From Candidatus Latescibacterota bacterium (GTDB taxonomy: Bacteria > Latescibacterota > UBA2968 > UBA8231), in contig CBDFJF010000002.1 of assembly GCA_965248265.1 (NCBI GenBank), forward strand, positions 768,001-832,000: DNA of 64,000 nucleotides, written 5' to 3'. The position numbers were made by a program, and so were the translations under genes. Below the pieces are notes generated by a model, which saw only the letters and a list, made by a program, of their open reading frames with translations, made no database searches and was not told the DNA's origin. Position 1 is the first letter of the stretch. Each line of letters begins with the position of its first letter. Positions 148 to 10,505 of the stretch are shown piece by piece.

Positions 148-912
148 TCAATCTCCGGGGTACTTGACATACAGGAGGCACAGTCCGCAGGCCGGCACTG
201 TGGGTCCAGCATCCGACCTGTCCACTCCGTGCTCGCTATCCGGTTCAGAAAGAAGATGGCCGATGGATGCGCTCGCCATCTTGCCACGACCTACCTCCAC
301 CAGGGTACCCACGATGATCCGGACCATGTGACGGAGGAACCGATCGGCTTCGATCTCAAAAGTCAGGTCGTTGCCCTCAACCGTCCACTGGCAATCCGTG
401 ACTTCGCACAAGAAGCTGTTCGGGATGGGGTCGTGATTGCAGAAGGCTTCAAATCCGTGCTGACCGTACAGCAGACGACTGGCATCCTGCATGGCGGCGA
501 GGTCGAGGGCTGGTCGGTACAGGGTCCACACCTGACGCCGCTGCAACGGGGACTTGGCCATTGAGATGCGATAGCGGTACCTCTTGCTGAGGGGACTATA
601 GCGGGCGTGGAAATCGGCCGGGACCTCGCGCACCGCGGTGATGGCGATATCATCCGGGAGCAGGCCGTTGAGGGCGTGCTTCATGCGGTCGGAATCGTGC
701 CTGGAGTCCGTGTCGAAGTGCGCCACCTGTCCGCGGGCGTGGACCCCGGCGTCTGTGCGACCGGCACCCACCGGGACAATCTTTTGCTGCAGGAAGCGGT
801 TGAGCGCGGTGCTCAGCTCACCCTGGACCGTGCGCCCTTGAGGCTGAATCTGCCAGCCGACGAAATCGGTGCCGTCATACTCGATGTCCAGCCGGACTCG
901 GCGCGTGTTCAC
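148..912 (-). CDS. truA: tRNA pseudouridine(38-40) synthase TruA
   Basis: EYDGTDFVGWQIQ, AGRTDAGVHA (catalytic Asp), FHARY and FLRHMVR motifs. Confidence 0.97.
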   Translation of the reverse strand: MNTRRVRLDIEYDGTDFVGWQIQPQGRTVQGELSTALNRFLQQKIVPVGAGRTDAGVHARGQVAHFDTDSRHDSDRMKHALNGLLPDDIAITAVREVPADFHARYSPLSKRYRYRISMAKSPLQRRQVWTLYRPALDLAAMQDASRLLYGQHGFEAFCNHDPIPNSFLCEVTDCQWTVEGNDLTFEIEADRFLRHMVRIIVGTLVEVGRGKMASASIGHLLSEPDSEHGVDRSDAGPTVPACGLCLLYVKYPGD

Positions 913-1736
913 ACGACAATCCCGAGACTGGGCACGAGTCCGAGGATGGTAGCGAGCGCTACGATTATACCGACCGCGACGGCTGCGTGTAGATCGCGCC
1001 GGCCCAATTCCAGCAGGTGGTAATTCGTGCGTCCGACTCCGCCGCGATAGCAGCGGCTCTCCATGGCGATGGCAAGGCGGTCGGCTCGCGCGAAAGCGGA
1101 GAGGAACAGCGGTACCAGAAGCGGCAGGAGCTGACGGGCGCGGCGGATGGGGCCACCGCTGAAGTCGGCGCCCCGGGCGAGCTGCGCCTTGTGCAGCCGT
1201 TCGGCCTCTTCGATGAGCACGGGGATGAAGCGCAACGCGATCGTCACCATCATGGCGAGTTCGTGCGCCGGAAACCCGAAACGGCGCAACGGATTCAGAA
1301 GGCGCTCGAGCCCATCGGTGATCTCAATCGGAGAAGTCGTCAACGTCAACAGGGACGCCAGGCTGACGACGACGGCCAATCGCAAAGAAAAGAACGCTCC
1401 GAAGCGAAGTCCCTCATAGGAGAAGCCGAGATCGGTCAACGGTATTCGCACAATGACGACACCGGGACTCATCAGGCCATGCATGATCAGTGTGAAGGCG
1501 AACAACCAGAGAAACGGTCGAAGGTTGCGCAGCAGCAGCGTCATCGTCAGTAGAGACAGCCGTGCCGACACCAGGACGAACACTGAAAAGAGGATCAGCG
1601 CCGGAAGTCTGTCACACTGAACGGCCGCGATCATGAGCGCCAATGTGGCGACGAGCTTGGTACGCGGGTCCAGTCGGTGGACGGGTGAGTCGAGGGCGAC
1701 GTACTTGCCGAGGGCGATGTTCTTGAGGGTGTTCAT
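909..1736 (-). CDS. ecfT: Energy-coupling factor transporter transmembrane component T (CbiQ/EcfT)
   Basis: SPVHRLDPRTKL N-terminus, several TM helices, ALRFIPVL..AQLARG and AMESRCY (two conserved Arg motifs). Confidence 0.92.
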   Translation of the reverse strand: MNTLKNIALGKYVALDSPVHRLDPRTKLVATLALMIAAVQCDRLPALILFSVFVLVSARLSLLTMTLLLRNLRPFLWLFAFTLIMHGLMSPGVVIVRIPLTDLGFSYEGLRFGAFFSLRLAVVVSLASLLTLTTSPIEITDGLERLLNPLRRFGFPAHELAMMVTIALRFIPVLIEEAERLHKAQLARGADFSGGPIRRARQLLPLLVPLFLSAFARADRLAIAMESRCYRGGVGRTNYHLLELGRRDLHAAVAVGIIVALATILGLVPSLGIVV

Positions 1737-2650
1737 GCCTGTGGATGGTGGGTATGGGAACCATAGATCAGGGTCGTTGACATCGAGGCGTGGCCCAGAA
1801 GTTGTTGCACGTCACGCACGTCTCCCCCGCCGTCGACCAGATGGGCGGCGAAGGTGTGGCGCAAGGTCTGTGGGCTGACTTTCCGCTGAATCCCCGCGGC
1901 TCGAGCAGCCGATTTGATGATTTTCCACACACTCATGCGAGAGAGCGCGCGTCCGCGCACGCTCAGAAAAAACGTTCTGACGTCGTCAGGGTTCAACCTG
2001 TGCAGTTCGGGTCTTGCATGGTCGGCGTAGCGCCTCAATGATTCAACAGCTGGCTCGCCGATCGGAACCGTTCGCTCTCTGGCGCCCTTGCCTGGAATGC
2101 GGACCAGGCCGGATTGCGGCAACACGTCATGCTCATTCAGCTGGATCAACTCCGACGCCGTTATTCCGGAAGCATAGAGCAACTCGAGAAGGGCGCGATT
2201 TCGCAAACCCACAGGATGATCCTCCCTGGCCGTTTCGACGAGTCTCTTGGCCTCGGCTATGCTCAAGAAATCCAGTGACCGTGGGATCGGTACGACGGTG
2301 GTGATGCGCTCGGCCGGATTGCGGTGACATAGGTTGCGGGTCTGCAGGAATCGATGGAACTGCCGTACGGACGAGGTGTTGCGTGCGAGGCTGGCCGTGG
2401 ACAGTCCCTGATTTTGCAGCTTTTCGAGCAATCCGTGGACATGGTCGGGACCGACCTCCTCGAGGCTGCTCACGCCCTGGGCGTCGAGGAACTCAAGATA
2501 GCGCTGTACATCGCGGCGATACGCGGCGCTGGTGTTGACACTCAGCGTCTCGTCGAGCGACTGCAGAAAGATCAAGAAGGGGGAGCGGAGATGTTCCGGT
2601 AACCGGATGGGAGACGCGCTACTGTGCCCCGGGGAGGCGGACCTTGTCAT
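1733..2650 (-). CDS. XerD-like tyrosine recombinase with degenerate active site
   Basis: N-terminal SAM-like domain (LSVNTSAAYRRDV), RNRALLELLYASG, GKG..ER.VP, TLRHTFA.HL, VQQLLGH..STT.IY; first catalytic Arg replaced by Thr and HxxR His replaced by Gln. Confidence 0.88.
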   Translation of the reverse strand: MTRSASPGHSSASPIRLPEHLRSPFLIFLQSLDETLSVNTSAAYRRDVQRYLEFLDAQGVSSLEEVGPDHVHGLLEKLQNQGLSTASLARNTSSVRQFHRFLQTRNLCHRNPAERITTVVPIPRSLDFLSIAEAKRLVETAREDHPVGLRNRALLELLYASGITASELIQLNEHDVLPQSGLVRIPGKGARERTVPIGEPAVESLRRYADHARPELHRLNPDDVRTFFLSVRGRALSRMSVWKIIKSAARAAGIQRKVSPQTLRHTFAAHLVDGGGDVRDVQQLLGHASMSTTLIYGSHTHHPQA

Positions 2651-3209
2651 AGTCGATCTGAACCCCCTCGAACTCCAAAAGTGCCTTTTTCCAGTGCGGT
2701 CCGGCGGAGTAGCCGATCAGGCCTCCTGTCGCCGCCACGGCACGGTGGCACGGATAGATGATGGGCAGCGGATTCTGGCTCACCGCGTTGCCGATAATTC
2801 GTGCCTGACTTTCCGGCAGGCCCAGTCGCATGGCGATCTGGCCGTAGGTTTCGAACTGGCCGTGCGGAATGCTATTCAGCGAGCTCCAGATTTTGCGCTG
2901 AGCATCTGTTCCCACTCCGGGCGGCAATGGGACATTGAACTCGGTCGGCTTGCCGATGAAATACTGCATGAACTTGGTGATCAGCTCCTGCCCGCCTGCG
3001 TGGGGAGGCAAGAAGCGGCGGATGCTGGTGCGGCGCTCGCCGGGATCGAATGGACCGATGACGATATTGATGACCGTTTCCTCATGCCAGCAAATACGCA
3101 CCGTGCCAAACTGGGTGACGACGTCCGTGGACGCGGTCATGGTGTTGTTGATTTCGTCGTGGAACTTGGGTCGAACAGATCCCTGGCCGACGTCGTGGTC
3201 TTCGCTCAT
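2619..3209 (-). CDS. ogt: Methylated-DNA--protein-cysteine S-methyltransferase (Ogt/Ada-C family)
   Basis: IPHGQFETYGQIA, NPLPIIYPCHR active-site motif, K.ALLEFEG; start uncertain. Confidence 0.9.
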   Translation of the reverse strand: MSEDHDVGQGSVRPKFHDEINNTMTASTDVVTQFGTVRICWHEETVINIVIGPFDPGERRTSIRRFLPPHAGGQELITKFMQYFIGKPTEFNVPLPPGVGTDAQRKIWSSLNSIPHGQFETYGQIAMRLGLPESQARIIGNAVSQNPLPIIYPCHRAVAATGGLIGYSAGPHWKKALLEFEGVQIDYDKVRLPGAQ

Positions 3210-5080
3210 GCCGTCTCCGAGTCTTGCGGGCGAAGCTCGTTTTCAGCCAGTTGTTCTTTGATGGCACGCGCTATCTTGAGGCTGATTCCCCTGGTCGTGG
3301 CGATCTCGTCAACCGGGGCGGAGCGCAAGCGATGCACCGAACCGAACTGTTGCAGCAGGGCCTGTCGACGTCCCGGCCCGACGCCCGGGATGCCGTCCAG
3401 CTCGGATGCCACCGTACGCTTGCCACGCAGCTTCTGATGATACTTGAGGGCGAACCGATGTGCCTCGTCGCGCAACGTCTGCAACAGACGCAAGCTGGCG
3501 GATGCTCTCGGCAGCAGGACAGCCTCGCTGCTACCGGGGACGAACACTTCCTCCAAGCGCTTTGCCAGGCCGATGACGGGTTGATTCCGGATACCGAGTT
3601 GGTGCAGGGCGGAAACGGCATTCGACAGCTGTCCCTTGCCGCCGTCGACCATCAGCAGATCCGGGAAGGGCTCGCCACGCTCTTGCAGACCTCGGAACCG
3701 CCGCAACACGACCTCGCGAATGCTGGCAAAGTCGTCGGGAGCGCTGACCCCTTTGATGCGGAAGTGGCGGTACTCGCTCCGGCGGGGCTTGCCGTCAACG
3801 ACGCAGACGACCGAACCCACGGTGTCCGTACCCTGGAAGTTGGAGATGTCGATCCCTTCCACCCGACGAGGCGCTGACGGCAAACTCAGATCGCGCTGCA
3901 AGGCTGCCACCGCCTGGGGCATTCGATCCTTCGTGAGCTCGCGCTTCATTTGACGTTCCCGCAGGATGTGACCGGCATTGATGTCGGCCATCTCCTGGGA
4001 CTTGGCCTTCAAGCCGCGCTGACTGACGGCGATTTCCACCTTTCCGTCAGCCTTCGTCGACAACCACTCGCTGAGTACGACGGCATCCGGTAATGCCACA
4101 CGGCAATGGATCTCCCGTGGGATGAAATCGGTATGCAGGTAGAACTGGCCGACAAAAGCGGAGACGATCTCCGCATCCTCGTGATCGATGACGCCATTGA
4201 GGAAGTGGTGTTTCTGTGCCAGCAAGCGGCCCTCCCGAATCTCGAGCACGGTGCAGCAGGCCTCGTCGTCGCTCCGGGATAGCCCGATTACATCGCGGTT
4301 CACGTTCTGGTCGAGGACCACTTTTTGCCTAGCCTGCGTCATCCGCAGGGCGTGGATCTGGTCACGAAGTCGAGCTGCCTGTTCGTAGCGCATCTCCCGA
4401 GAAGCCCGGGTCATTTGTTGATCCAGTTCCCTCACAACGCTGGTGTTATTGCCCTTGAGAAAGCGCACGGCGCGATCGACGACGGCGCGGTACTCTCCCT
4501 GTTCGACCAGGGCTTCACACGGACCATCACAGCGATGGATCTGGTGTTCCAGGCACAGCTTGACGTTGGCCGCCGGCAGGTCGTAATCGCAGCTGCGCAC
4601 GGGAAAAATCTTGTGCATCACATCCAGCGCCGTCCGCATGGCCTTGGCGTTGTGATAGGGTCCCAGGTATCGCGACCCATCGCGCACTATATCCCGCGTC
4701 CAGAAGATTCTCGGAAAGGTCTCATGGGTGATCCGGATGAACGGGTACTTCTTGTCGTCCTTGAGATAGATATTGTAGCGTGGCCGATGGGTCTTGATGT
4801 AGTTGCTCTCGAGAATGAGTGCCTCTTTGTCGCTTTCAGTCACGACGTAGCCGATGTCGCGGATCTTGGCGACCAAAGCCTGCAGCTGAGGCCTTCCATC
4901 ATCGCCGGCACCCTTGCTGAAATAGGAGCGCACACGGCTGCGCAGGCTTTTAGCTTTGCCTACGTAGATGACCCGGCCTTGCTCATTCTTCATCAGGTAG
5001 ACTCCCGGTTTCGCCGGCAGGCTACCCAACTTGAAATGCAGGTGTTCTGATACCGATTCAGTCATCCCAACGGGGCGCAT
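3206..5080 (-). CDS. uvrC: Excinuclease ABC subunit C
   Basis: GIY-YIG domain (PGVYLM..IYVGKAKSLRSRVRSYF), Cys-rich region, UVR domain, RNase H-like DISN/DGGKGQ, RDEAHRFA, C-terminal HhH. Confidence 0.98.
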   Translation of the reverse strand: MRPVGMTESVSEHLHFKLGSLPAKPGVYLMKNEQGRVIYVGKAKSLRSRVRSYFSKGAGDDGRPQLQALVAKIRDIGYVVTESDKEALILESNYIKTHRPRYNIYLKDDKKYPFIRITHETFPRIFWTRDIVRDGSRYLGPYHNAKAMRTALDVMHKIFPVRSCDYDLPAANVKLCLEHQIHRCDGPCEALVEQGEYRAVVDRAVRFLKGNNTSVVRELDQQMTRASREMRYEQAARLRDQIHALRMTQARQKVVLDQNVNRDVIGLSRSDDEACCTVLEIREGRLLAQKHHFLNGVIDHEDAEIVSAFVGQFYLHTDFIPREIHCRVALPDAVVLSEWLSTKADGKVEIAVSQRGLKAKSQEMADINAGHILRERQMKRELTKDRMPQAVAALQRDLSLPSAPRRVEGIDISNFQGTDTVGSVVCVVDGKPRRSEYRHFRIKGVSAPDDFASIREVVLRRFRGLQERGEPFPDLLMVDGGKGQLSNAVSALHQLGIRNQPVIGLAKRLEEVFVPGSSEAVLLPRASASLRLLQTLRDEAHRFALKYHQKLRGKRTVASELDGIPGVGPGRRQALLQQFGSVHRLRSAPVDEIATTRGISLKIARAIKEQLAENELRPQDSETA

Positions 5081-5948: not shown

Positions 5949-8900
5949 ATGTCCATGGCGCTCCGGCACCCGATCCCTCGGCTCTCGTTCACCCTGCTGA
6001 CTGCGTCTCTTCTCCTGTGGGCGGAGGAGAGTTTCGGCACCACCAATGAGAATTTTAACGCGGTCATCGCGAACCAGCAGAAGGTGTTCAAGAACCCGCA
6101 GCCCGGCCAAGAGATTCGGGTTAGAATAGGGGTAGAAGGCATCTCAGAGGTCAGGCAGATCAGCGCTCAGGTCGCCTACGATCCCGAGTTTTTCGACTTC
6201 GATGAAGTCGTGAGGGGAAATCTCCTCGAGGATGGCGAGTTTTTCGTAAGTAGTAATGAAATGGTCGGAAATCTCTCGGCGGTTTCCGCAGGCGTAATCA
6301 GCTTTGGCACAGAGCCCGACCGCTCCAGCAGGGGGATCGTGGGAGAGTGGGTGTTCATTCTGAGGGAGCCGATCACCGAGATGGACGGACACACCGACCT
6401 CTCGCTGACTTACATCAGAGCCGCCATGACGACGGATGATGCCGACGAGCGCGTGTTCGCGCCTGGCGTACTCACCATCACGGCCGCGTTCGATCGGTCG
6501 AACAAGTTCGAAGGCAAGGGGGTGAAGGCCTTCCCGCGGTTCCGCAGTGCCTCGATCCAGTGGAAAACTCAGGAGCGGGGCATCCAGGACGTCGCCAGAG
6601 TCGACGAGTTGAACCTGACGGGCGAGTTCGTGAGGATCGGCGAGTTCGAGCCGAATTACCCGGATCAGGCGCTGGATCTGCTACGCGACATGGATCAATA
6701 CGCGCGCCGAGCGGCGGCGGGAGAAGTGCCGGACGTCGATTTCGTGAACGATGATGTCGAGACAATCCGCGCTGCCCTGAATATTGGCACGCCCGGCTTC
6801 GGGCTACCCGATCTGTTTCCGGACCTGCTGCAGTTAGCCAGACCTATATACAAGCGGTTCCTAGACCAGATACACCTTGTGGAGGTCACCGGGCTCACGC
6901 AGGGCACGCACTACCGGGCCTGTGTCGAGTCGACCAGCCTGACGGGTAACTTGAGTCCTGGGCCTCCTGAGGGGTGCGTGGAGTTCGATACGCGATCGAG
7001 GCAGGATCTGCGCAGGGCGGTGGCCAGCAACTTCGATTGCCAGCGGGGACTCACTTCTTCAACATGCGATTTCGACACCAACCGCCTGGTCAAGACGTCC
7101 TACTCGTTCTTGACGGTCGAAGACACGGGCCCGTCAACGATCGCCGGGATCAGTCAGCCTTCGTTAGGCGAGGTGGTCGCGACCGGGGAAGTCAACCCGC
7201 TTGGAGCCAAGGAGACCAACTTTACCGTCAAAGGTCTCGATCCGGGCACCCGGTACGGCATCGAAATCACGGCCGAACTGGTCGGGGAAATCTCCGACGA
7301 TCTGCCGCCCGGTTTTGCCTTGATCGACCTGCCCACGAGGATCATCAGAACACGGGCCAGACTCCCGGGAGGGGGGGCCATCACGGGCCCTCCCGCCCCG
7401 ATCCCGAGTTCCCAGAGTGCCGTGATCAAGTTCAACACGCCGCTGGCCGTCGTGGCCGACGTGTTCTTCGCAATCGGCCCTGATGTCGATCTTGCGTTGA
7501 AAGCGACCGCGAATCAAGAGGACTTTCCAGAAGATGATTTCACTTGGATGGCCAGCGGACAACGAGGTACGAAACATGAAATTGAGCTTTCCGGCCTCGA
7601 TCCGTTGACGAACTACGTCTATAAGATCGAGTATGACGTCGAGGGTGGTGAGAGGTTCTCCACCCGTGCCGATGGCAACACCAAATTCAGCGGGGTACTG
7701 GAGTTCGACACGACGGACCCCGCCGACCAGTCCCCGCCCGCCCTCACCGAGGGTCCGCGTGTGTTCACGACGGATGTGATCGCGGTAGCTCAATTTCGCA
7801 ACGATGTGGCGTCGACGGCATCCGTCTTTGTCGGCACGGCCTCCACCCTCGGGACCTCCGACGAGTACGAGTTCTCCGATGGGATACTCGACGGCAAGCA
7901 CAGCATCGTCATGTCGGGACTGGATCAAGGGGTCGACTACCTCTACCGCATCGAGTACACCGGCGCCAACGGCGTCACCGGAATCTTCTCCGGATCAGGT
8001 GATGTCGCCGGCAAGGCCACGGCGGCGTTGCAGCCGCCCGGCGGTGGGGGCGCCTTCACGACGACGAATGTTCCCGACACGCAATTTCCTGTGATCCTGA
8101 CCGGCCCCACGGTGTCGTCGAAGACCCACGACACCGCCATCGTCGAGTGGACGACGGACGAGCCCGCCGACAGTGACGTCCAGTTCGGCACGACAGAGCT
8201 GGATGAGCAGGAGGCCTCCGGCGTCAGTGAAACGAGCCACAAGATCACGCTGCCGGGTCTGACGCCGGGGACCACGTATCAGTACATCGTGGCCTCGACG
8301 GACGCTTCCGGCAACGGCGCCACGCAATCGGCCACGGCCGTGTTCACGACGGATCCGGAGATCGACCTGACCGCCCCCTCCATCGTCGGCACGCCCTCGA
8401 TCGGCTACAAGAATGAAAGCTCGGCCACAGTGCTGTGGACGACCAACGAAGAGGCCACCGGCAAGGTCGAATTCGGCACCGATGCACAGCTGGGCTTCAT
8501 CCGCACGCTGCCCGAGACGGAGACCGTGCACGAGATCACGCTGACGAATCTGGAGGCCTCGACGGAGTACTTCTACCGGGTCAGCTCCACCGACCTGAGC
8601 AACAATGGGCCGACGGAGTCGAGCATCCTCAGTTTCACCACCGACGCGGCCCCCGATCTGACGTCCCCGACGATCTCGAACATTCAGGTGGAGGAGGATG
8701 AGACTTCCGTCATCATCACTTGGGACACGAACGAGCTGGCCGACAGCTTCGTCGACTTCGGCACGACCTCGGGGCTGCTGACCTCCACGGTCGGCGACGT
8801 CGAGGATGTGACCGAGCACGAGATCACCATGACCAACCTGGAATCGGCCACGACCTACTTCTACACGGTCGGCTCGATCGACCGGGCCAACAACCCGCCG

Positions 8901-10505
8901 ACGCAGTCTTCCCAATCCAGCTTCACGACATTGGCCACAGCCGACGTGACGGCTCCGGCCGTACCTGCCGGGCTGGATGCCATCCCGGGCTCGGAACAGG
9001 TCGTGCTCAGCTGGGACGCCAACGATGAGCTCGATCTGGCCGGCTACCGCGTCGAGCGCCGGGCGCCGACGCTCCCCTTCTTTACCGCCATCGCCTCGGG
9101 TCTGGAGGAGCCGACCTACACCGATTTGGGTCTGAGCAACTCGGTCGAGTACGAGTACCGCGTCCTGGCCGTGGATCGCTCCGACAATGCCTCGGACCCA
9201 TCGGAGGCGGTCGCAGTGACGCCGGTGTCGACGGCGGCCCCGACGACGCCCACCGAGCTGGCCCACAGCGGCGCCTTGCGGCCGACGTTCCGCTTCGACA
9301 ACGCTGAGCCCTTCGCCGCCGGGGCGACGCTGACCTACACCGTGCAGGTGTCGACGGAGTCCGACTTCTCGAACGTGACCGACTCGGAATCGGGCATCGT
9401 CGAAGACGGCGACGGCGTCACCACCTGGACGATCACGCGCGATCTGGTGGGCGACGCTACCTACTACTGGCGCGTACGGGCATTGGAGGGGGCCCTGATC
9501 GGGCCGTGGACGGAGCCGCAGGAGTTCGCTGCGGCGGCCGTGGCCCTGGTCGCCGACTTCAACGGTGACCTCAAGGTCAACCTCGACGACTTCTTCGATT
9601 TCATAGACGTGTTCGGCGATCCGGTCACCGGGGCGTCCATCGTCTACGACCTGGACGACGACGGCCGTATCGGCCTGGACGACTTCTTCATCTTCATCGA
9701 TCACTTCGGCGACACGGCCACTGCCGGCAGGGTCTGGGCGTATGCCAACGTGATGGACGAGCAAGCCCAGCTGCGGCTGGAAGCGCGTGGTAGCTCGGCG
9801 ATGAGCGCTGGTGGAGCTGGGGCGGCCACGGGCACCGAGACTGACCGCATCACCGTGCGCCTGTGGGCTGATCAGGTCGGCGATCTGGAGGCCTACGCCC
9901 TAGTCGTGGGCTACGACCCGCGGCTCGTGCGTTTCGTCGGTGCGCAGCAGGGGATCGGGCCGCTGCTGGAATCTCAGGGCGGTAGCGCACCGCTGTTCAG
10001 CGTCCTGCACCGGCGCAAGGGGGAGCTGGTCGTGGGCAACGGCCTCACAGACGGCGACCCGGTTTCCGGCTACGGGCTGCTGGGAGAGCTCACGTTCGAG
10101 ACGCTGACGGCGCCGACGTCTGGTCAGGCCTATTTCGAGCTGCGCCAGGCCTTCATCAAGGGAGAGCAGGAGGACGGGCAGGTGCGCCGCGTGCGTCAGG
10201 TCAGCTCGACGAAGTTGCTGCCGCAGCAGTTTTTCCTGGGGGCCAATTATCCCAATCCGTTCAACCCTGCAACACAGATCAACTTCGCGCTACCCGTCGG
10301 CACCAGCGTCGAGCTCAAGGTCTACGACGTGCTCGGCCAACTCGTGCGCACGCTGGTGGCCAAGGAGCACCGCGCGGCTGGTTTTTACAACGTCGTCTGG
10401 AACGGCAGGGACGAGAGCAATCGCGGCGTCGGCAGCGGCGTCTACTTTTACCGGCTCAAGACGCCCGCCGTCCAACATTCGGGGAGGATGACGCTGCTCA
10501 AATAG
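5949..10505 (+). CDS. Large secreted modular protein: cohesin-like, tandem Fn3-like domains, dockerin/EF-hand-like pair, cohesin-like, FlgD-Ig/T9SS-like C-terminal domain
   Basis: Signal peptide; repeated W.T.E.A...V.FGT...H.I.L..L...T.Y.Y units; DFNGDLKVNLDDFF and DLDDDGRIGLDDFF; C-terminal NYPNPFNP..GVYFYRL..MTLLK. Confidence 0.85.
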   Translation: MSMALRHPIPRLSFTLLTASLLLWAEESFGTTNENFNAVIANQQKVFKNPQPGQEIRVRIGVEGISEVRQISAQVAYDPEFFDFDEVVRGNLLEDGEFFVSSNEMVGNLSAVSAGVISFGTEPDRSSRGIVGEWVFILREPITEMDGHTDLSLTYIRAAMTTDDADERVFAPGVLTITAAFDRSNKFEGKGVKAFPRFRSASIQWKTQERGIQDVARVDELNLTGEFVRIGEFEPNYPDQALDLLRDMDQYARRAAAGEVPDVDFVNDDVETIRAALNIGTPGFGLPDLFPDLLQLARPIYKRFLDQIHLVEVTGLTQGTHYRACVESTSLTGNLSPGPPEGCVEFDTRSRQDLRRAVASNFDCQRGLTSSTCDFDTNRLVKTSYSFLTVEDTGPSTIAGISQPSLGEVVATGEVNPLGAKETNFTVKGLDPGTRYGIEITAELVGEISDDLPPGFALIDLPTRIIRTRARLPGGGAITGPPAPIPSSQSAVIKFNTPLAVVADVFFAIGPDVDLALKATANQEDFPEDDFTWMASGQRGTKHEIELSGLDPLTNYVYKIEYDVEGGERFSTRADGNTKFSGVLEFDTTDPADQSPPALTEGPRVFTTDVIAVAQFRNDVASTASVFVGTASTLGTSDEYEFSDGILDGKHSIVMSGLDQGVDYLYRIEYTGANGVTGIFSGSGDVAGKATAALQPPGGGGAFTTTNVPDTQFPVILTGPTVSSKTHDTAIVEWTTDEPADSDVQFGTTELDEQEASGVSETSHKITLPGLTPGTTYQYIVASTDASGNGATQSATAVFTTDPEIDLTAPSIVGTPSIGYKNESSATVLWTTNEEATGKVEFGTDAQLGFIRTLPETETVHEITLTNLEASTEYFYRVSSTDLSNNGPTESSILSFTTDAAPDLTSPTISNIQVEEDETSVIITWDTNELADSFVDFGTTSGLLTSTVGDVEDVTEHEITMTNLESATTYFYTVGSIDRANNPPTQSSQSSFTTLATADVTAPAVPAGLDAIPGSEQVVLSWDANDELDLAGYRVERRAPTLPFFTAIASGLEEPTYTDLGLSNSVEYEYRVLAVDRSDNASDPSEAVAVTPVSTAAPTTPTELAHSGALRPTFRFDNAEPFAAGATLTYTVQVSTESDFSNVTDSESGIVEDGDGVTTWTITRDLVGDATYYWRVRALEGALIGPWTEPQEFAAAAVALVADFNGDLKVNLDDFFDFIDVFGDPVTGASIVYDLDDDGRIGLDDFFIFIDHFGDTATAGRVWAYANVMDEQAQLRLEARGSSAMSAGGAGAATGTETDRITVRLWADQVGDLEAYALVVGYDPRLVRFVGAQQGIGPLLESQGGSAPLFSVLHRRKGELVVGNGLTDGDPVSGYGLLGELTFETLTAPTSGQAYFELRQAFIKGEQEDGQVRRVRQVSSTKLLPQQFFLGANYPNPFNPATQINFALPVGTSVELKVYDVLGQLVRTLVAKEHRAAGFYNVVWNGRDESNRGVGSGVYFYRLKTPAVQHSGRMTLLK

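Follow-up and report, generated by a model that had tools for sequence, protein, structure and literature searches.

The recombinases XerC and XerD, together with their dif site, are treated as near-universal housekeeping machinery of bacteria. To our knowledge, the exceptions replace the pair by one recombinase, which is XerS, XerH, XerA or the system of the Legionellales. In addition, the unloading of Smc-ScpAB by XerD is not known to need catalysis or XerC. The work of Karaboja et al. 2021, as related in two later reports, has the XerD of Bacillus subtilis unload Smc-ScpAB in a sequence-specific manner, at XDS sites of the terminus that resemble dif (PMC11840125, PMC12322038). In streptococci and lactococci, dimer resolution is performed by XerS with the adjacent site difSL, and the lactococcal orthologue of the degenerate 'XerD' of these bacteria neither carried out recombination on difSL nor bound it specifically, according to the relevant part of the report (PMC1914069). 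Similarly, XerS/difSL and XerH/difH appear in partial accounts as single-recombinase modules, the gene of which adjoins the site at the terminus (PMC2731167, PMC5357621). Literature searches on Latescibacteria and Xer, as well as on degenerate or non-catalytic XerD, turned up only the streptococcal case, and we know of no published account of the reading given below. The present analysis deals with a XerD-like open reading frame (ORF) in a stretch of 64,000 nucleotides (the window) from a Candidatus Latescibacterota bacterium (assembly GCA_965248265.1, contig CBDFJF010000002.1, positions 768,001 to 832,000). The genome holding the window is designated G000 and its family f1, other G numbers denoting relatives. 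We consider it rather probable that this ORF encodes a conserved, selected, non-cleaving XerD orthologue, that XerC/XerD was replaced in f1 by a recombinase encoded at the terminus, and that the old pair was kept in a non-catalytic form.

Catalytic residues and conservation of the XerD orthologue

The XerD-like protein has the two-domain architecture of XerD, with a SAM-like N-terminal domain followed by a catalytic domain (Table 1). Its best match among solved structures is XerD of Escherichia coli (1a0p; E 4e-49), against which the catalytic positions were assigned residue by residue. Its best NCBIfam model is XerD as well (TIGR02225), with 267.6 bits, which is under the cut-off of 329.6 for equivalog membership. 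In the genome collection, the best match to the protein adjoins uvrC in 40 relatives, indicating that the ORF corresponds by position to ordinary xerD, as its orthologue. Within f1, ogt usually lies between uvrC and xerD, and in a sister family uvrC is directly adjacent to xerD, the order uvrC-(ogt)-xerD being common to family and class relatives that possess a canonical XerD. The gene is this organism's own xerD, passed on by vertical descent. The earlier note on this sequence had taken the uvrC and ogt neighbourhood, as a DNA-repair operon, for a clue to function. As sister families with a canonical XerD share the uvrC-xerD linkage, this neighbourhood is older than the arginine loss and implies no new function linked to repair; the clue was rejected.

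The catalytic hexad of the protein reads T-K-Q-R-H-Y, compared with R-K-H-R-H-Y in canonical XerD. Codon checks and the alignment with 1a0p bear out what the earlier note had seen, namely Thr at the first arginine position (Arg-I), Gln at the first histidine position (His-I), and retention of the lysine of the beta-hairpin, the second arginine (Arg-II), the second histidine (His-II) and the nucleophilic tyrosine. The frame is unbroken and overlaps both neighbouring genes, as had also been read from the sequence, and the C-terminus is indeed short; about 10 residues are deleted after the tyrosine, the terminal HHPQA being kept, where the canonical tail ends in HPRA/G.

The relatives of this protein in the protein database share 94, 87, 83, 81, 80, 67, 66, 64, 64, 63, 60 and 58% identity with it. 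Thr stands at Arg-I in 13/13 orthologues, the query included (58-100% identity), the surrounding motif being G[IMV]T[AV]SEL. Beyond this group, identity falls to about 50%, and the sequences carry Arg at this position, or Lys in one case. The three changes that the earlier note had treated as one set differ in their distribution. The substitution of Arg-I is general in this clade, whereas the His-I position (261) holds His in eight of the 13 orthologues, Gln in four and Arg in one, and Gln occurs there in several relatives more distant than the Thr clade too. Likewise, only the five closest sequences (P0001-P0005) share the tail deletion, with P0010 being short as well. Sequencing error, chance and recent decay are excluded, because the same Thr164 is shared by all these independent orthologues and assemblies; the earlier note had rightly set ordinary decay of recent date aside.

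DNA for an estimate of the ratio of nonsynonymous to synonymous substitution rates (dN/dS) came from metagenome contigs, which supplied two full-length XerD-like relatives and a partial one, and hence three pairwise comparisons. Depending on method and pair, dN/dS was 0.15-0.26, alike in both domains and in keeping with the value below 1 foreseen in the earlier note, indicating that the gene is under purifying selection; dS reached 0.88. For comparison, dN/dS was 0.08-0.18 in the fragments of ogt, ecfT, truA and uvrC that these contigs contain. A broad-pattern contig search derived from the XerD-like alignment was left unused, since all it yielded were 80 distant XerD loci, spread over many phyla, with no close relative among them.

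The effect of the substitutions can be judged by comparison with Cre, for which all substitutions of the active-site residues were tried. According to the part of that study drawn upon here, the tyrosine and the hairpin lysine are strictly required and each active-site arginine tolerates very little substitution. The equivalent of Arg-I is active only as Lys (in vivo) or His, R173A and other changes being devastating, and the His-I position accepts many residues including Gln, with H289Q staying active and about 1% of the tyrosine recombinases found in nature having Gln there (PMC2943603). By this standard, Thr164 would be the disabling change and Gln261 would not, so that the replacement of His-I loses the inactivating role that the earlier note had given it; the Lys substitutions common in other XerD orthologues of f1 should disable too. 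With Arg taken to be essential on the basis of the Cre mutagenesis (PMC2943603), the loss of a catalytic residue, conserved in 13/13 orthologues under purifying selection, fits a pseudoenzyme, and most likely the XerD-like protein cannot cleave DNA. In an AlphaFold2 (AF2) model built on an alignment of 21 rows, both domains were confident (mean predicted local distance difference test, pLDDT, of 82), and residues 289-305, which include Tyr296, were without helix at a pLDDT below 50, giving a weak hint that the element bearing the tyrosine is no longer ordered.

It is highly improbable that the protein is still active, with Thr164 tolerated or compensated by another basic residue and one strand pair exchanged at dif. 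Such activity would agree with the retention of four of the six hexad residues, nucleophile and lysine among them, and with the natural occurrence and the activity in Cre of Gln at His-I. However, at Arg-I only Lys and His could stand in for the arginine of Cre in the partial account cited (PMC2943603). Moreover, the XerC-like partner described below is without tyrosine, which makes a complete two-step exchange by the pair impossible, the segment around Tyr296 has no predicted helix, and two members of the Thr clade have themselves lost the tyrosine.

The XerC orthologue and the recombinase at the terminus

Genome G000 comprises 7.32 Mb on two contigs, is 92% complete and has 18 matches to PF00589. 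The XerD-like protein is the top match to the XerD model, and the second-best match is encoded between topA and hslVU, which we take to be the usual place of xerC/codV. This XerC-like protein keeps Arg-I and Arg-II, whereas the hairpin Lys, both histidines (His-I, PQLLRN; His-II, LGQ) and the tyrosine are gone. The losses are common to 11/11 members of its clade (62-100% identity), across which the C-terminal tail, LRAMYNRAHPRA, is nearly invariant; relatives at 44-50% identity are mostly canonical. With a XerC lacking the tyrosine and further residues, the classical XerC/XerD pair is incapable of full exchange in this organism. Canonical copies of xerC and xerD, which the earlier note had proposed to look for elsewhere in the genome, were not found among the 18 PF00589 matches of G000. 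The other recombinases with a full hexad in this genome are an integron-integrase-like protein, phage or island integrases, and a recombinase encoded at the terminus. The integron-integrase-like protein (contig 1, 1754213-1755187, minus strand; L015:1450-2424) scores 239 bits with TIGR02249, the cut-off being 265. Four integrase paralogues, each about 290 aa long and much alike (C1:703263-704141, C1:685700-686671, C2:3930247-3931110 and C2:3033496-3034371), suggest a multi-copy mobile element.

A complex prediction for the two catalytic domains placed the tail of the XerC-like protein (residues 305-328) on residues 131-138, 156-160, 194-203 and 267-284 of the XerD-like protein, with a score of 0.83 compared with 0.00 for the best of three controls. 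That mark was reached by 116/157 solved complexes and 2/215 mismatched pairs, a calibration that holds only roughly as own alignments were used. The runs agreed in at least 73% of the contacts, with a partner pLDDT of at least 70. Solved assemblies of tyrosine recombinases are known to exchange C-terminal helices, so that the outcome may show likeness and is not proof of contact. The predicted docking of the XerC-like tail on the XerD-like protein fits a pattern in which the XerC-like protein keeps a donor tail and the XerD-like protein, its own tail lost, keeps the acceptor surface.

Degeneration of the pair extends over the family. The XerD hexad is non-canonical in 19/24 genomes of f1, versus 0/15 in other families, and mostly Lys and/or His-I are changed, with Arg-I changed too in G006 (genomes G001 and G038, without XerD match, were omitted). 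For XerC, 21 genomes of f1 could be compared, of which four are canonical, three show only a change of Lys to Arg, 13 have lost the tyrosine and one carries other changes; in other families, XerC is canonical in 15/15 genomes. In this count, G009 and G022 (no match with the query), G004 (a fragment at a contig end), G021, and G040 (its match being the same locus as its XerD) were left aside. As the losses differ between genera, degeneration happened repeatedly.

A third Xer-like recombinase came to light through the inner dif core, a short motif of known dif sites, which was used as query. Of its three matches in G000, one is followed at about 340 bp by a tyrosine recombinase gene, which is embedded among housekeeping genes on contig 2 (Table 1). 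The cumulative GC skew of this contig has its maximum in the 5-kb bin at 3,480,000-3,485,000, which holds the gene, the dif-like site being a few hundred bases from this bin. On contig 1, the skew minimum coincides with dnaA, and the arms would measure about 3.70 and 3.62 Mb if the contigs join as the skew suggests. In 5/5 genomes, namely G000 and four single-contig relatives, the third recombinase is encoded at 46-54% of the chromosome from dnaA (sizes rounded). Its hexad, R-K-H-R-H-Y, is invariant in 19/19 orthologues, and the synteny leuS-recombinase-mutL is conserved in relatives. At E<=1e-40, it was found in 59/75 genomes of f1 and in 0/92 genomes that represent 13 further families of the phylum. 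In the same genomes of f1, identity to the G000 copy amounts to 57-73% for the third recombinase, 42-50% for XerD and 33-47% for XerC. Regarding its affiliation, it scores 69.5 bits with the XerS model, under the cut-off of 267, and no match to XerH was obtained at E<=1e-5 among solved structures. The gamma domain of FtsK is present in G000.

Two kinds of sites accompany the gene. First, a canonical-type dif-like site (ATAA-N6-TTATGTAAA) lies 20-360 nt downstream of the stop in 17/19 loci, a count that hinges on the threshold of at most 3/13 mismatches, a strict search in relatives having given almost nothing; in G000, it lies about 180 nt past the stop. A second dif-like site, inverted, occurs upstream of the gene in 6/19 loci, G000 included (0-1 mismatch). 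As the sites form inverted repeats around the gene in these six relatives, inversion of the gene segment would be possible. Secondly, a near-perfect 11-6-11 palindrome is present upstream in 15/19 loci (at most 5/22 mismatches), with at most three mismatches in 13 of the 15. It is perfect in G000, at about 100 bp from a dif-like site (L164, about 6647-6674 for the palindrome and 6751-6778 for the dif-like site), and the lone other near-match in this genome, with three mismatches, lies at about 3,430,611 on contig 2, 54 kb away in the terminus region. A tRNA-adjacent integrase is encoded between the palindrome and this near-match (contig 2, 3462026-3463459). In a sister family with canonical XerC and XerD, a site near mid-chromosome has the same XerD arm, and the canonical-type sites would be descendants of the ancestral dif. 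As a symmetric site suits a homomeric enzyme, the palindrome is the likeliest candidate for the own site of the third recombinase. The gene lies by a dif-type site at the terminus, as in the single-recombinase modules.

These sites bear on the possibility of a mixed complex, in which the XerD-like protein, with or without the XerC-like one, sits on the canonical-type dif arm beside the third recombinase and controls this enzyme, for example through FtsK sensing or the order of strand exchange, and thus still belongs to the machinery of dimer resolution. In favour of such an arrangement, which seems quite unlikely, canonical-type dif-like sites whose XerD arm is conserved have persisted at 20-360 nt from the gene in 17/19 loci, where XerC and XerD are mostly degenerate. 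The FtsK gamma domain, the predicted docking of the two old partners with its rough calibration, and a report, seen here in part, that active-site mutants of one Xer partner stimulate the other (PMC2943603) agree with it as well. On the other hand, nothing indicates contact of the third recombinase with either protein, its own perfect palindrome would suit a homomeric enzyme, and G015 and G017 contain a degenerate pair and no third recombinase. In addition, the lactococcal homologue of the degenerate XerD neither bound difSL nor influenced XerS, as far as the part of that study used here goes (PMC1914069).

Several observations weigh against the preferred reading of a selected, non-cleaving pair replaced at the terminus. 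With respect to the protein itself, loss of cleavage is argued from Cre and not from XerD, and four residues of the hexad (Tyr, Lys, Arg-II, His-II) are still in place. Also, P0008 and P0010 of the Thr clade have lost Tyr and His-II, and the length of the tail is variable, which is as compatible with erosion still under way as with a new function that has settled. Further, dN/dS of the XerD-like gene is 1.3 to 2.5 times that of its neighbours, i.e. its constraint is relaxed. With respect to the third recombinase, the XerD hexad is still canonical in five genomes of f1, four of which carry the third recombinase, indicating that its presence does not by itself force degeneration. Conversely, 16/75 genomes of f1 gave no match to it at E<=1e-40, among them the complete or near-complete genomes G015 and G017 (single-contig) and G119 (three contigs); in G015 and G017, XerC is without Tyr and XerD without Lys and His-I. 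With respect to the sites, the counts at two to three mismatches include some chance matches, owing to AT-rich spacers, those at 0-1 mismatch being reliable. Finally, XerD-arm 9-mers within 0.5 Mb on either side of the terminus site of G000 were not significantly enriched (9/24, compared with a pooled 17% for 300 shuffled control motifs, 7.7% of which reach the observed share).

Some of these points would be expected from a slow and unfinished decay, in which xerD and xerC became dispensable after a takeover, and the open frame and low dN/dS reflect waning constraint or operon packing, with start and stop codons that overlap and a translation coupled to that of ogt and ecfT. Different lineages of f1 have lost different combinations of catalytic residues, and G009 and G022, although 90% and 86% complete, yielded no XerC orthologue with this query. 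Together with the further losses in P0008 and P0010, the varying tail and a dN/dS above that of the neighbours, this speaks for decay. Yet frames are open over their full length in 13/13 XerD-like and 11/11 XerC-like sequences, down to 58% and 62% identity, respectively. Moreover, dN/dS is far from neutrality in both domains, and dS indicates ample time for stops and frameshifts to arise. Overlaps of only 4-32 nt with the neighbouring genes cannot constrain 900 nt by coupling, and the XerC-like tail has stayed nearly invariant despite the lost tyrosine. Decay is unlikely on this evidence, and the preferred reading remains that of a pair retained in non-catalytic form.

Gene neighbourhood and feature coordinates

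The XerD-like ORF is part of a tightly packed row of genes on the minus strand, from uvrC to truA (Table 1). In the Ogt-type protein encoded upstream, the recognised part is confined to the C-terminal DNA-binding and active-site domain (residues 101-183), the first 95 residues or so being without any family match. In two metagenome relatives, which stem from different records (L051:1-431 and L053:733-1319), the ogt-type gene matches the protein of the window in two frames; the matches overlap by about nine residues, which amounts to a frameshift relative to the single ORF of the window. Divergent from the uvrC row, an ORF of 1518 aa with many repeated segments occupies 5949-10505 of the window on the plus strand.

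Table 1. Location of the XerD-like ORF, its domains and catalytic positions, its neighbours, and the two other recombinase genes of genome G000. Positions are those of the window unless a contig is named; domains are given in residues of the XerD-like protein.
Feature	Location	Strand	Remarks
XerD-like ORF	1733..2650	-	Unbroken, 305 aa plus stop
SAM-like N-terminal domain	residues 32-105		XerD-like; PF02899 (Pfam)
Tyrosine-recombinase catalytic domain	residues 129-299		XerD-like; PF00589 (Pfam)
Thr164 at Arg-I (motif GITASEL)	ACG, 2161-2159	-	1a0p alignment and codon check
Lys188, beta-hairpin lysine, kept (GKGARER)	AAG, 2089-2087	-	1a0p alignment and codon check
Gln261 at His-I (SPQTLRH)	CAG, 1870-1868	-	1a0p alignment and codon check
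Arg264, Arg-II, kept	CGC, 1861-1859	-	1a0p alignment and codon check
His287, His-II, kept (LLGH)	CAC, 1792-1790	-	1a0p alignment and codon check
Tyr296, nucleophile position, kept	TAT, 1765-1763	-	1a0p alignment and codon check
C-terminal tail GSHTHHPQA, shortened	1736..1762	-	9 residues past Tyr, versus 19 in canonical relatives
Ogt-type methyltransferase gene, upstream	2619..3209	-	196 aa; overlaps the XerD-like start by 32 nt (2619-2650)
uvrC	3206..5080	-	624 aa; 4-nt ATGA overlap with ogt
ECF-transporter T component gene (CbiQ family), downstream	909..1736	-	ATG overlaps the XerD-like stop (4 nt, ATGA, 1733-1736)
truA	148..912	-	End of the row; GTGA overlap with ecfT
xerC orthologue (topA-xerC-hslVU)	contig 2, 715863-716891 (L014:1405-2436)	+	About 52 kb upstream of the window
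Third Xer-like recombinase gene	contig 2, 3483356-3484390 (L164:5356-6390)	-	Full hexad; between asnS-leuS and mutL

Proposed roles and comparison with known systems

The observations can be arranged into a scheme for f1. A third recombinase with an intact active site, encoded at the terminus, probably took over chromosome-dimer resolution, and this takeover would have lifted the catalytic constraint on XerC and XerD. The XerD-like protein would then have turned into a pseudo-recombinase through the change of Arg-I to Thr and the deletion of the helix after the tyrosine, with both domains under purifying selection. It may bind dif-type sites through their XerD arm (TTATGTA...) in a non-catalytic manner, together with the equally dead XerC-like protein. 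As candidate roles, it may have an architectural or regulatory part to play at the terminus, mark the terminus, or be an accessory to the new recombinase. More specifically, and only tentatively, the whole XerC/XerD pair of f1 might act as a non-catalytic heterodimer on ancestral dif-type sites, with an architectural or regulatory task such as marking the terminus, stopping SMC or FtsK, or assisting another enzyme. The accessory version, which is part of this heterodimer proposal, would have the pair control a newly acquired homomeric recombinase, the palindrome of which lies at a distance of about 100 bp and would be its site of action.

If the preferred reading is correct, the uncultured family f1 shows a replacement of XerC/XerD caught midway over dozens of genomes, with catalytic losses that are specific to lineages in genes that have stayed open and selected. 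Such a natural series would address two questions, namely which roles XerC and XerD have beyond recombination, and how an essential machine of two enzymes is handed over to a newcomer. A non-catalytic heterodimer combined with a new recombinase would, if true, constitute a natural two-layer terminus module without described counterpart. Caution in annotation is also called for, as these proteins carry the labels 'tyrosine recombinase XerD' or 'XerC' in public records.

Compared with canonical XerD (1a0p, TIGR02225), the XerD-like protein shares the domain architecture and, with the canonical XerD of sister families, the gene neighbourhood. It differs by Thr at Arg-I, Gln at His-I and the missing stretch of about 10 residues after the tyrosine. 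The degenerate 'XerD' (YnbA) of streptococci and lactococci resembles the present case in that another recombinase is encoded by its own site at the terminus, as described by Le Bourgeois et al. 2007 (PMC1914069). The XerD-like protein is not a member of the YnbA family NF002685, scoring 29.7 bits with a cut-off of 178, which suggests that this likeness is convergent. Unlike the situation of YnbA, the protein is here the positional orthologue of canonical xerD, a dead XerC is kept as well, and canonical-type dif-like sites persist. The XerD of B. subtilis offers a precedent for a DNA-binding task at the terminus other than recombination, yet it is also a working recombinase there, and an enrichment of XDS-like sites as in B. 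subtilis could not be shown in G000, the share of XerD-arm 9-mers given above being reached by some of the shuffled controls. The third recombinase, finally, is like the XerS and XerH modules in being single-copy and encoded beside candidate sites at the terminus. Unlike them, it belongs to neither family, and its gene has, besides its own palindrome, canonical-type dif-like sites around it.

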